DNA from: Eledone cirrhosa
Lineage: Eukaryota
Length of the DNA stretch: 64,000 bases
Direction of reading: 5' to 3'
NCBI GenBank assembly: GCA_964016885.1
Contig: OZ024742.1
Coordinates: 98,146,001-98,210,000, forward strand
Below are positions 4,484-59,048 of this stretch, one piece after another; positions within the stretch are counted from its first letter, which is position 1; each line of letters starts with the position of its first letter. A program made the translations under genes and the position numbers. Under the pieces are notes generated by a model. The model did not search any database and was not told the origin of the DNA. It was given only the letters and a program-made list of their open reading frames with translations.

Positions 4484-4528
4484 AGTCATAGTCCTTTCGT
4501 CACACACTCTGTGACCTCTTCAGTGACT
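4484..4528 (-). ncRNA. Minimal type-I hammerhead ribozyme (family A)
   Basis: Reverse complement reads agtca CTGAAGA g gtcaca gagtg tgtgac GAAA g ga c TA tgact; stem I agtca/tgact, stem II gtcaca/tgtgac. Confidence 0.8.
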
Positions 4529-4807
4529 GGGGATTCCTTTCTTTGTTTCTGTGCCTTTCCTTTCTTCTATCCTACGCCATTTTGTTTCTGTGTGTGTGTT
4601 GTGTGCTCAGTTTGCGCATGCGCCACATCCGGGTGTATGTGTGTGTTTGTGTTCATTTATCTATTTGTTTATTTATTTATTTATTTATTGTTGGTTGGTT
4701 GTTTGTTCTATGTGTGTGTGTGTTTTCATTTTTTCCTTAATTGTAAGTTGTTTGTTCTATGTGTGTGTGTGTTTTCATTTTGTCCTGTGTGTGTTTTCAT
4801 TTTGTCC

Positions 4808-5290
4808 TTAATTGTAAGTTGTGATGTTGCTGTCCCACTCATATTTTCTATTTAATTTTGGTTGTAATTCTTCTATGCTTACTGCCTCTGTAATTTGCCT
4901 AAACATTGCATCTTTTCTGTGTGTGGATTCTATTTTTATTTCTATGTTCTCTAATCTACCCCTGTGTTCTATCTTAGAATGTTGGTAGAGCACAGATGAT
5001 TCTTTATTATCTTGAAGGTCTCGCCAGTGTTCATTTATTCGTTCCCCTATACTACGAGCTGTCTCACCTATGTACACTATATTTTTGTTTCTACATTGTC
5101 CTTCAGTACATCTTATGCTATACACTACATTTCTAGTTTTTCAGTTAATATGGGGGCTTATTTTACATGTTATACATTTCTTATCTATACATGAGGGTCT
5201 TTGGAACGGGTATGTCTTGCTAATAAGTGTTTTTACGGAGGTACCTGGTCTTTCTACTATCTTAATATTGAGTTTATGTTTTATTTAGGG
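4808..5290 (-). pseudogene. GIY-YIG endonuclease domain of the PLE, frameshifted
   Basis: Cys motif CIDKKCITC, then VVY...YIGET.R...R..EH...E....PKLN; 1-nt indel near 5140 relative to the right arm. Confidence 0.85.
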
Positions 5291-5753
5291 CCCTTCTAAA
5301 TTTGTAGGCTAGTTCGCCTCTAGGGGTTGTATTGATGAACATTACACTCTGGTATTTATTGCTATCATACCATGAGTTTATTCTATTGGCCTTGTTCCTA
5401 GTTCTTTCTATTCTATTCCAAAATTTGCTCCTATACAAGGGGCAGGTCCCATTTATGTCATTATTTACCATTTTTTCCCATTTGGTTCTGGCTCCTTTAT
5501 ACACTCTGATTATATCTCTCTGAGATATAATCAGAGTGTATAAAGGAGCCAGAGAACTGCATACGGTGGATGAAGTGTTGTATGTGTCTCTCTAGTTCTT
5601 CGGGGTTGCACATGCGGGACACATTTCTCATCACCCGTACCAAATCCGCAATCAGTATGTTGATTTTGGTATGGTCCGAAATGGCCGAGTTTCGGTGGAT
5701 CAGATGTTTGGAAGTCATGGGTTTGGCATAATGGGAATGGAGGATTTGTTTTT

Positions 5754-6237
5754 GGCCCTAAATAAAGATAAACTCAATATTAAGATAGTAGAAAGACCAG
5801 GTACTTCCGTAAAAACACTTATTAGCAAGACATACCCGTTCCAAAGACCCTCATGTATAGATAAGAAATGTATAACCTGTAAAATAAGCCCCCATATTAA
5901 CTGTAAAACTAGAAATGTAGTGTATAGCATAAGATGTACTGAAGGACAATGTTGAAACAAAAATATAGTGTACATAGGTGAGACAGCTCGTAGTATAGGG
6001 GAACGAATAAATGAACACTGGCGAGACCTTCAAGATAATAAAGAATCATCTGTGCTCTACCAACATGCTAAGATAGAACACAGGGGTAGATTAGAGAACA
6101 TAGAAATAAAAATAGAATCCACACACAGAAAAGATGCAATGTTTAGGCAAATTACAGAGGCAGTAAGCATAAAAGAATTACAACCAAAATTAAATAGAAA
6201 ATATGAGTGGAACAGCAACATCACAACTTACAATTAA
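5754..6237 (+). pseudogene. Inverted copy of the GIY-YIG domain with an in-frame stop at about 5953
   Basis: ORFs 5671-5955 and 5968-6237 are in the same frame, separated by TGA where the left arm has AGA. Confidence 0.85.
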
Positions 6238-6542
6238 GGACAAAATGAAAACACACACAGGACAAAATGAAAACACACACACACATAGAACAAACAACTT
6301 ACAATTAAGGACAAAATGAAAACACACACAGGACAAAATGAAAACACACACACACATAGAACAAACAACCAACCAACAATAAATAAATAAATAAATAAAT
6401 AAACAAATAGATAAATGAACACAAACACACACAGACACCCGGATGTGGCGCATGCGCAAACTGAGCACACAACACACACACAGAAACAAAATGGCGTAGG
6501 ATAGAAGAAAGGAAAGGCACAGAAACAAAGAAAGGAATCCCC

Positions 6543-6587
6543 AGTCACTGAAGAGGTCACAGAGTGTGTGACGAAAGGACTATGACT
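6543..6587 (+). ncRNA. Minimal type-I hammerhead ribozyme (family A)
   Basis: agtca CTGAAGA g gtcaca gagtg tgtgac GAAA g ga c TA tgact; predicted cleavage after 6582. Confidence 0.8.
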
Positions 6588-6941
6588 ATATATAAACAAC
6601 TATCTGGTTGTGGAACCAACCAACCAACCTGAAATGTATAAGTTTGTAGATTTGTAAATTTATAAATTTATAAATATATAATAAATTGAAGTGAAAGCAA
6701 CTGGTGCGTGTGTTTCTTATTGGCAACATGACCCTCCCAAAGTATAACAAGATTAATATATTAATATATTAAAATAGAAAAGCTCAAATAAAAGATCCAC
6801 AAAACAAAAGCAGGTAGAAAATACCCTACCACTTATATATATATATATATATATATATATATACACATATACGTATCAAGTTGCGTTAAGTAATATATTA
6901 AAATGTATGAATTTTTAATTTATATTATTCAAAATATCATG

Positions 6942-7004
6942 TTCGTAAAAGTTAACGAGAGGGTTGTTCTGATCAACTTTGAAACACCGATAACATTTTA
7001 CGAA
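6942..7004 (+). ncRNA. Degenerate hammerhead-like motif
   Basis: ttcgtaaaag TTAACGA g agggttg ttctgat caacttt GAAA caccga TA acattttacgaa; stems I and II pair but the core is mutated. Confidence 0.4.
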
Positions 7005-7229
7005 ATTTAATTTTATACAAAGACTTATTGTAGGAAAAAAATAGAACTAGTAAGCAGACGACGAAAGAGAGTGAGAGTTTAAAATAAAGTGAAAAATGGA
7101 GACATATCATATGCAGGAAAAGTCAAGAAATGCATGACACTATATGTAAAAATGTTCAAGACAAAGTAAAATGAGAAAAGGAAATTACAAAAAAATAATG
7201 AACATTTTTTGACAGCAGATGTAGTTTAA

Positions 7230-56879: not shown

Positions 56880-57060
56880 TTGGCAGTATCGGTAGAGGGT
56901 TGGACACCATGTTTTCTAGCATAGTTACGTCCCTTTAGAGTCTGAGTTCAAATCCCGCCGAGGTTAACTTTGCCTTTCATCCTTACGGGGTCTATAAAAT
57001 AAAGTACCAGTAATGTACTAGTTAATTGCTGGGCTTGTGCCTAAAGTAGAAACAATTATT
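56880..57060 (+). mobile_element. tRNA-derived SINE
   Basis: tggcagtatcggtagaggg...tctgagttcaaatcccgccgaggttaactttgcctttcatccttacgggg...aaagtagaaacaattatt. Confidence 0.85.
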
Positions 57061-57189
57061 ACTACAGGCATCTCATGGATATTAATAAATTACTAAGATT
57101 TGTGTGTATTATAAAACAAATATTGATAAATATATATATATATCCAAAATTAAGATAAATCAAAATGAATTTAATCTAAATCAAAATTA

Positions 57190-57460
57190 TGGGTGTCATG
57201 CCAGAAAGGCATGCGCCATATCACCCATAAAATAAGCTCCAAGATTCTAATGAAAAGGTCCGAGCATTTTATAACAACTAGAAATTGATTAACGTATAAA
57301 CAAACATATGAAACAATCACGGGATAATTTTTACAAGTGTGTTAGCACACATAGCTAGATAGGTAACTAAATAAAGTTGACTAGATCTTCAAAAATAGAT
57401 ACCTTATAATATGATTGTTTCATATGTTTATTTATATGTTAATCAATTTCGTGTTGTTAT
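57190..57460. repeat. Repeat family with an internal inverted repeat; second copy at 47020-47285
   Basis: Shared aataagctc..aagat..aatgaa..g.tccgagcatttt...ctagaaat; aaacatatgaaacaatca pairs with tgattgtttcatatgttt. Confidence 0.65.
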
Positions 57461-57499
57461 ATATAAATATATATATATATATATGAATAAATAAATATA

Positions 57500-57830
57500 A
57501 ATTTAGCGAGAATCGCATTTCGGCTATTAGATATTAGCGAAACGCAACTTCTGATTTGTGTTGGCAAGCGCTCAATGGATACCAAGATACCAGAGCAATA
57601 AACATAAGTTAAAAAGGGCATACAAACTGAGACGATGGCCTAGAAGCCATTAACCACCTAGGCCAAAGAAGCGAGCAAGCTACGCGGGTCAAACAAAATA
57701 AGATATGATTGAAATATTTACCCGGACCGTCGGAAATGATGGTAAAATCCAATAGAGGGTTCTGGGACACCTAAATCATAATACTGTCTGCTTAAAAAAT
57801 ATAATGATCGAACAAGATATCACGTTTTCA
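57500..57830. repeat. Dispersed ~330-bp repeat; second copy at 59115-59440
   Basis: Both start at (TA)n with ttagcgagaatcg.attt.ggctatt and share ggcaagcgctc, aacataagttaaaa and cctaaatca..tactgtctgctta. Confidence 0.75.
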
Positions 57831-57985
57831 ATATCTATATATGTACAATATATTTATATAATGTATATATATATATATATTTATATATATATTGTATATA
57901 TATATATATATATATATATATATATATATATATATATATATATATATATAATATAAAATCAAAAGATGGTTAAAAGAATTCCATG

Positions 57986-58048
57986 TATTTTATTATGCGC
58001 ATTTCAAAAACAAATATCATCATGTTTGGGTTCTCATCAGAGAAAATA
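57986..58048 (-). ncRNA. Minimal hammerhead motif related to family C
   Basis: Reverse complement reads tattttct CTGATGA gaacccaaacatgatgatatttgttttt GAAA tgcgca TA ataaaata; palindromic ATGCGCAT, imperfect stem II. Confidence 0.62.
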
Positions 58049-58577
58049 GGGAGACATGGTATGAAGCTTAAAAAACACTTGCGAGCAGTGAAGTGTTAAA
58101 TCAACATACGAAAAATAAAATAAGATGGATATATGAGATTGGAAAAAGGGAAAGGAAGGGGGAAGGGAAAGGTAAGGAAGAGGAAGAAAGAAATTAGATA
58201 GAAGAAAAAAATATAATAATAAGGAAGGTATGACGGAGGAGGAGTATAGGAGGAGAAAATGAGTGAGAGAGAGGGATAACCTTTAATACTGAGAAACATT
58301 GTCTCACAGAGAAAAATAAAAAAAAACCGTTGTAAGATAATACATAATTTAAAAAATTGTGCCACAATAAAACTCACCTCCTACATATATATACATATAT
58401 ATATATATATATATATATATATATATATATATATATATATATATACAATATATTGATAAATATGATATGTATATATATATATTGTACATATATATTATAC
58501 ATATTTATATATGTATGTATATATATATATATGTATGTTATATATATATATATATATATATATACATATATATATAT

Positions 58578-59048
58578 ATATTGTTATGCTTTGGGAGGGT
58601 CATGTTGCCAATAAGAAACACACGCACCAGTTGCTTTCACTTCAATTTACTATGAATTAAATTTATAAATTTGCGATTGGTTGGTTGGTTCCACAACCAG
58701 ACGATTGTTCTGTCCTACGCCATCTTGTTTGGCGTAGGACAGAACAAAGGAGAGGCACAAAAACAAAGAAAAGAATTCCCAGTCACTGAAGAGGTCAGAT
58801 AATGTGTGACGAAAGAACTTTGACAATATATGAACAATCGACTGGAAATTATATGACAATATATGAACCAACCAACCGGAAATTTATAAATTCTTAAATT
58901 TATAAATTTAATTTCTAATAAACTGAAGTGAAAGCAACTGGTGCGTGTCTTTCTTATTGGCAACATGACCCTCCCAAAGCATAACAATATCGGTTTCAAC
59001 ACACGTTTTCAGATGAAGAATCTTGCTAAACAAATTCAGAAACGAAAT
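58578..59048 (+). mobile_element. Solo family-A pLTR with an upstream inverted partial copy, set in (TA)n
   Basis: 58578-58690 is the reverse complement of about 58866-58990; the sequence is homologous to 6490-6750 and 4260-4460. Confidence 0.85.
58781..58825 (+). ncRNA. Minimal hammerhead ribozyme (family A)
   Basis: agtca CTGAAGA g gtca gataatgtg tgac GAAA g aa c TT tgaca. Confidence 0.7.

Follow-up and report, generated by a model that had tools for sequence, protein, structure and literature searches.

We analyzed a 64,000-nucleotide stretch of the genome of the cephalopod Eledone cirrhosa (contig OZ024742.1, positions 98,146,001 to 98,210,000), hereafter the window, in which a sequence-only reading had listed 14 near-canonical hammerhead ribozyme motifs. 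The assembly comprises 3.0 Gb with chromosome-size contigs, and the window is AT-rich, microsatellite-rich DNA. The type-I hammerhead class was tested with the core CUGANGA / GAAA / UH plus helices I and II. Hammerhead-like sequence was present at all 14 sites; 11 passed a type-I descriptor, whereas those at 17958, 49025 and 57986 failed. A refined descriptor (core, 4 bp or more in helix I, no more than 130 nt in helix II and a self-complementary helix III) passed ten listed motifs, with core position C3 at 4523 (-), 6548 (+), 9153 (+), 16263 (-), 16754 (+), 23595 (+), 26665 (-), 36155 (-), 36165 (+) and 58786 (+). The motif with C3 at 12166 (+), listed at 12158, passed only the first, differently tuned descriptor. 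As to the failures, the window copy at 17958 (+) carries A6G, and its relatives keep CTGAAGA; helix I at 49025 (+) has 2 bp, likewise in the relatives printed; and in the copy at 57986 (-), whose relatives are intact, helix II is shortened and helix I contains a mismatch.

Hammerhead motifs in the window

The proposed check of motif density against shuffled sequence came out in favor of the motifs: the ten refined matches compare with a mean of 0.07 (maximum 1) in 100 shuffles made in 1-kb blocks and with none in the reversed window. The first descriptor found 8 in the window against shuffle means of 0.075-0.12 (maximum 3, 3 x 200 shuffles). A one-mismatch core scan of the window with a short helix III gave no matches.

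The assignment of the motifs to many unrelated families was an overstatement. The 14 motifs represent 8-9 families and about 11 insertions, because those at 4484/6543, 16191/16748 and 36026/36161 are inverted pairs and those at 12158 and 57986 share helix I. The term minimal does not fit family D (helix II of 48 nt) or family G (101-104 nt in the window). Among the sites called decayed, 34468 and 49399 have better-preserved relatives, 18461 is a family-wide variant rather than a decayed core, and 6942 had no relatives among the fetched loci. The old family that includes the site at 15184 has a doubtful core; this repeat (15170-15250) has a candidate palindromic helix III and a non-canonical 5' core and often occurs as inverted pairs. 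Motifs and carrier insertions are collected in Table 1.

Table 1. Hammerhead motifs and associated insertions, in window coordinates
Feature	Position	Strand	Remarks
Family A insertion	4256..6753	.	5'-truncated 3' end of a Penelope-like element (+) and inverted truncated copy (-); matches near-full element L058
Family A GIY-YIG remnants	5755-6234; 4811-5754	+; -	Inside the 4256..6753 insertion
Family A hammerhead	4484..4528	-	C3 4523; predicted cut after 4489; two central helix III mismatches
Family A hammerhead	6543..6587	+	C3 6548; predicted cut after 6582; 3,211 exact copies genome-wide
Family B retrozyme-like single incomplete unit	9087..9497	+	Preceded by inverted piece 8952-9089
Family B hammerhead	9146-9190	+	Predicted cut after 9183; 10,032 exact copies genome-wide
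Family C hammerhead (C/I group)	12158..12219	+	Helix II base weak; 66,037 C/I pattern matches genome-wide
Family D hammerhead	16191..16269	-	Inverted partner of 16748; helix II 48 nt
Family D hammerhead	16748..16826	+	Predicted cut after 16820; helix II compensatory changes among subfamilies
Family E fold-back insertion	17891..18031	.	+ copy 17958-17998 with A6G; - copy lacking 3 nt of helix III and the 5' strand of helix I; no intact copy
Family J hammerhead-like motif	18450..18500	-	C3 18495; family-wide U4A core; 5-bp non-palindromic helix III
Family F hammerhead	23587..23636	+	3-bp monomer helix III possible; predicted cut after 23628; 5'-truncated ~20 nt upstream of core
Family G hammerhead	26537..26674	-	Helix II 101 nt; downstream of 234-bp duplicated unit (26651-27119) and endonuclease C-terminal remnant (27656-27860)
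Decayed hammerhead, family K	30633..30671	-	Absent from the earlier list; downstream of GIY-YIG remnant ~31080-31400 (-)
Decayed relative of family A	34460..34530	-	
Family G fold-back insertion	35962..36358	.	99% palindrome; hammerheads with C3 36155 (-) and 36165 (+); predicted trapped in a single long hairpin
Family H 3' end of a Penelope-like element	47288..49150	+	Endonuclease-like remnant 47288-47587; C-rich 3' region; hammerhead core 49029 (helix I of 2 bp)
Decayed copy of a minimal hammerhead family	49390..49430	+	3-bp helix I
Family I hammerhead (C/I group)	57986..58048	-	Helix I mismatch and shortened helix II in window copy
Family A older subfamily, weak	58781..58824	+	4-bp helix I

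Elements that carry the motifs

The motifs had been placed in the pseudo-long terminal repeats (pLTRs) of Penelope-like elements (PLEs), and near-full copies elsewhere in the genome bear this out. In the near-intact family A locus L058, an inverted truncated copy is followed by a hammerhead, a 1240-codon frame with reverse transcriptase (RT) and GIY-YIG motifs, and the same hammerhead. The same layout with frameshifted open reading frames (ORFs) was found for family G (L217) and family J (L297). Hammerheads thus occupy both pLTRs of an RT + GIY-YIG element in families A (L058 and L059), G and J; in families H (L221) and K (L233) the link is on the 3' side only, with RVT_1 or GIY-YIG matches upstream of the motif (both in L221). 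Within the window, GIY-YIG remnants stand upstream of the family A, G, H and K motifs; that of family H (47288-47587) had no Pfam match and resembles the GIY-YIG ORF of L221. A first-look search of the genome with the endonuclease piece of family A gave 29,038 candidates. The protein encoded by L217 is similar to RT/GIY-YIG clusters in the Atlas (0.94-0.95) and 49% identical to a family J ORF; a PDB search found no structure of a PLE protein. A Cys linker (CX2-5CxxC before the endonuclease), a criterion for Neptune, was seen in the L058 frame, so that family A is a candidate member of the Neptune clade, a provisional label.

Features expected of endonuclease-bearing PLEs (PMC8557442) were observed, namely 5' truncation, partial tandems, an inverted 5' copy and a tail at one end. 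The motif lies ~40-350 nt from the element 3' end, and insertions are heavily 5'-truncated, frequently with an inverted second copy. The high number of motifs follows from this position and from the short, often inverted insertions, because even the shortest deposits one or two. Families C, D, E, F and I share this habit of truncation and inversion. Family D also had a weak endonuclease match upstream of the motif in L128, and no ORF tie was seen for family I in the fetched loci. A (TA)4 run was present within 320 nt downstream of the cut site in 11 of the 14 motifs checked, compared with 39% of random positions. Two further PLE 3' ends, inverted relative to each other, at 29130-30073 and 32623-33590 carry GIY-YIG remnants (Pfam E 8e-5); neither the descriptor nor a loose pattern found a hammerhead core in them.

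In an alignment of family D (10 related rows, only 2 of them divergent), 94.8% of cells were paired and four pairs had two-sided changes; 5 of 500 shuffles scored equal or higher. Helix II of family G is 101-116 nt long and folds well by itself (z -3.95). This family is young, with 40 scored copies 98-100% identical among 1,645 candidates. The 234-bp duplicated unit next to its window copy ends just inside helix II, its upstream unit contains a decayed 5' half core, and it is also present in family G pLTRs. For family E, the best 30 of 369 candidates were examined with a query downstream of the cut site: 5' ends lay 10-43 nt upstream of this site in 20, at +1/+5 in 2 and further upstream in 8, with no spike at the site itself, and two 3' ends (+38 and +121) were observed. 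The view of family E as a fixed-junction palindrome with a flip-flop spacer was rejected, as the query had held the junction and junction-free queries gave variable ends.

Family B is of a different kind. Elsewhere in the genome it forms a tandem unit of 466-482 bp without an ORF and with one type-I hammerhead per unit; arrays had 7 units in L037 and 5 + 4 units in L234, some with inverted halves. It has the non-coding tandem organization that characterizes non-LTR retrozymes and is thus retrozyme-like. A second retrozyme-like family with a 310-311 bp unit was detected at L035:6135-7907 and L066:3650-4610, with no member in the window.

Family J is a core variant, in which position 4 was A in all 61 copies (some found with an A4 query, and up to 8 derived from one local duplication). 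Exact matches in the genome numbered 17,572 with A at this position, 70 with T and 108 with G or C; the reversed-pattern control gave none, and a control with position 6 changed to T or C gave 98. Helix III is a hairpin of monomer type. Identical helices were found in most of the 61 copies (54 for the helix I 5' strand, 45 for helix II and 44 for helix III); helix I of the window copy contains one mismatch, and a second, partial copy lies at 17211-17308. We rejected the U4 copies as a selected subfamily, since 70 copies correspond to the background mutation rate. The four natural U4 loci inspected (among L300-L304) are all truncated or inverted within ~10 nt of helix I, perhaps through copying errors made late in reverse transcription. 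Eight family J matches, mostly at ~60-kb spacing, within G000:C12:16976521-17439385 suggest a large tandem duplication. No description of a U4A hammerhead, or of the variant core strings among the 15 of 83 matches listed, was found in the literature, in which Lunse et al. (PMC5785218) and the supplements of PMC4209133 and PMC3088659 may include long helix II or U4 variants. The spread of this family with an altered core would suggest that cutting is not needed for jumping.

The window contains several other repeats. A 654-bp inverted repeat (92.5%; 46124-46775 and 49591-50230) encloses the family H insertion and other repeats. A very abundant short repeat (167 local matches) with inverted ends occurs at 27868-28176 and 46814-46947. 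Weak PAX-like and Mos1-type helix-turn-helix matches at 9440-9805 and 12881-13270 are probably remnants of DNA transposons. A short palindrome beside CUGAUGA (minus strand, 8294-8400) had no relatives in the fetched loci.

Genome-wide load, helix III and folding

We sampled 91 content-blind 10-kb stretches (71 at regular positions, 20 random by length; 909.6 kb) and detected 78 motifs in 36 of them, compared with 0-2 in shuffles and 1 in reversed sequence. The motifs form 24 sequence clusters, across which pairing is kept, pairing being built into the descriptor. The density of 86/Mb (95% bootstrap 57-119) extrapolates to roughly 170,000-360,000 motifs, and supports the very large, diverse ribozyme load that had been proposed. 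Direct matching provided a floor of 79,280, composed of 66,037 (C/I), 10,032 (B) and 3,211 (A), with zero matches to reversed-pattern controls. Calibrated by pattern, the sample held 23 C/I matches against 20 expected and ran high for A (5 vs ~1), B (8 vs ~3) and J (8 vs ~5); minus three array loci, 59 matches remained in 880 kb (67/Mb). The extrapolation may therefore be an overestimate, and, given the excess for A and B, a cautious genome total is ~200,000 motifs. The window itself is not an outlier, as 10 motifs per 64 kb fall within the sampling range (P ~0.14).

A palindromic helix III had been described as nearly universal. Among helices III of at least 6 nt, with no palindrome required, 12 of 18 distinct sequences were fully self-complementary vs 0 of 7 in shuffles; families A, with its two central mismatches, and J do not conform. 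In a nearest-neighbour model, the double-hammerhead fold was 7-15 kcal/mol below two monomer folds for all ten window motifs tested and was the minimum-energy fold for three of them; several motifs were not hammerheads at predicted minimum energy. The double-hammerhead energies are consistent with the published dimer model.

Of the 78 sampled motifs, 43 were solo, 18 head-to-head and 17 in same-strand tandem. By descriptor coordinates, no window motif had another member of its family on the same strand within 5 kb. The 36155/36165 pair is one 397-bp hairpin with a helix I probability of 0.00, and transcription through an inverted pair would yield a long hairpin. (Context folding of helix I varies with the choice of folding window, e.g., 0.57-0.97 vs 0.00 for 26665, and was used only for this perfect hairpin.) These contexts and the inactivity of published monomers argue against the proposal that any transcript crossing the region could be cut. 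Published work reports that a single minimal hammerhead of Schistosoma mansoni did not cleave and dimers cleaved at a low level (PMC4209133), that cutting by the anole PLE hammerhead required the protein of the element and no RNA-seq reads ended at the site (PMC11167929), and that cleavage was absent in 8 of 9 Xenopus retrozyme dimers (bioRxiv 2026.07.22.740005). Moreover, no host exon was recognized among the 99 + 12 window ORFs scanned. A search of sequencing runs gave two RNA contig sets at a share of 0.06 and no raw RNA reads containing the stretch. Cutting of passing transcripts is likely rare.

Interpretation and comparison with known elements

Very probably, the window contains type-I hammerheads from the terminal repeats of several PLE families and one retrozyme-like repeat, left by short, often inverted insertions, with most single copies likely silent. 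In source elements or tandem arrays, two copies may pair via the palindromic helix III as a double hammerhead, probably aided by an element protein, with weak cleavage of the precursor RNA. Uncut or re-ligated RNA would be the template for most new copies. Genomic copies that are solo or head-to-head would have no same-strand partner or would be folded into long hairpins. Family J, fixed for U4A, may be a lineage that spread despite the loss of most catalysis, with its fold preserved. In the anole element, the hammerhead needed protein and was dispensable for insertion in vitro, and the template was apparently uncut RNA (PMC11167929).

Several observations weigh against this interpretation. 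Pfam gave no match for the whole ORFs of L058 and L217 or for the L297 pieces; the ORF tie of family C is weak (an inverted pair around an RT remnant in L219, E 0.018), and none was established for families D, E and F in the fetched loci. Conservation of structure across the 24 clusters implies that cleavage matters in some source elements, and seamless copies could also come from cut, re-ligated circles. A pooled truncation map (10 families, 152 copies) had 7 of 152 ends within 3 nt of the cut site and no spike, only E and J being suggestive, and is confounded by reference ends and subfamily boundaries. In addition, a monomer helix III can form in families F and J, and some solo copies may therefore cut.

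Alternatively, the load might be functionally active, with tens of thousands of near-identical transcribed copies dimerizing in trans or across long introns and cutting host pre-mRNAs and non-coding RNAs genome-wide. The exact B copies and C/I matches counted above (10,032 and 66,037) would supply many compatible partners, a self-complementary helix III lets any two family members pair, and two family G copies on the same strand are separated by 9.5 kb. Nevertheless, we regard such activity as quite improbable, considering the poor cutting of published dimers even in cis (PMC4209133), the protein requirement of the anole motif (PMC11167929), the scan of window ORFs that recognized no host exon and the predicted trapping of the 36155 copy in its hairpin. 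Chance matches in AT-rich, palindrome-rich repeat DNA have a negligible probability. They might account for the Rfam scan of the window (E <= 10), which listed only microsatellite-driven microRNA matches and no hammerhead family among the best 150 of 223, and for the motifs that are not hammerheads at minimum energy; but the sample, shuffle and reversed-pattern counts, zero in the whole-genome controls, together with the fixed pLTR position, already refute them.

It is also conceivable, though unlikely, that the A4 core of family J is a working variant, a new monomer-active core in which a stable helix III or an element protein offsets the loss of U4. The three helices are intact in most copies, the element was amplified to more than 17,000 copies, and a viroid U4C variant keeps enough activity in vivo (PMC3088659). 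On the other hand, saturation mutagenesis of one hammerhead found all single CUGA-turn changes low in activity (PMC9901934), the predicted minimum-energy fold of family J is not a hammerhead, and a recent burst from one mutant master copy would explain intact helices without selection.

A broader possibility, which we put forward tentatively and with some doubt, concerns a genome with about a quarter million Penelope-type hammerheads, above the published counts compared, and a 17,000-copy U4A element. This element would represent either a working core variant rescued by a long helix III or an element protein, or in vivo proof that cleavage is dispensable for spread, with the fold serving as a reverse-transcription stop or a protein-binding site. 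The clustering of family E 5' ends inside the ribozyme would fit such a role. The role of the hammerhead in endonuclease-bearing PLEs is an open question (PMC8557442). It becomes testable with natural sequences, as young families with near-intact ORFs (1226-1240 codons) offer a canonical core (A), a 100-nt helix II (G) and U4A with rare natural U4 (J). The high load also makes intron strand bias a strong test of host-RNA cutting by such motifs.

Overall, the carriers belong to a known kind of element, are unusually dense and include two structural variants (helix II of G and U4A of J). The basic motif and the dimer logic are already known from the minimal pLTR hammerheads of PLEs (Cervera and De la Pena 2014, PMC4209133). 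Like those metazoan motifs, the present ones are type I with a short helix I and a palindromic helix III, families A and H have an extra nucleotide after A9, and the genome has several consensus families, mostly as single truncated copies, with opposite-strand pairs 100-700 bp apart. In contrast, there are at least 79,280 direct matches here vs ~2,000-9,000 per genome there, counted with a different descriptor, helix II reaches 48 and 101-116 nt vs 7-8 bp, and G10.1-C11.1 is often missing; a U4A family with a long helix III was not found in the available part of that paper. With other descriptors, 126,247 hammerheads were reported for axolotl and ~5,000 for a mussel (PMC7229834); no hammerhead census was found in the cephalopod literature searched.

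Family B is similar to animal non-LTR retrozymes (PMC7229834; bioRxiv 10.64898/2026.07.22.740005) in its non-coding tandem unit, its monomers and multimers and its co-occurrence with PLEs. It differs in the 466-482 bp unit with an internal microsatellite and in the PLE-like inverted halves. The Anolis Poseidon element PAc (PMC11167929) likewise has a pLTR hammerhead near the ORF start, two alternative 3' ends (the tail), AT-rich targets and uncut RNA as the apparent template. However, tails are 60-130 nt here vs 30-40 nt in PAc, and protein-assisted cleavage was demonstrated for PAc. Finally, Naiad/Chlamys PLEs (PMC8557442) are without canonical hammerheads; family J differs from them in its C-terminal endonuclease and in a whole three-helix fold with one core change.

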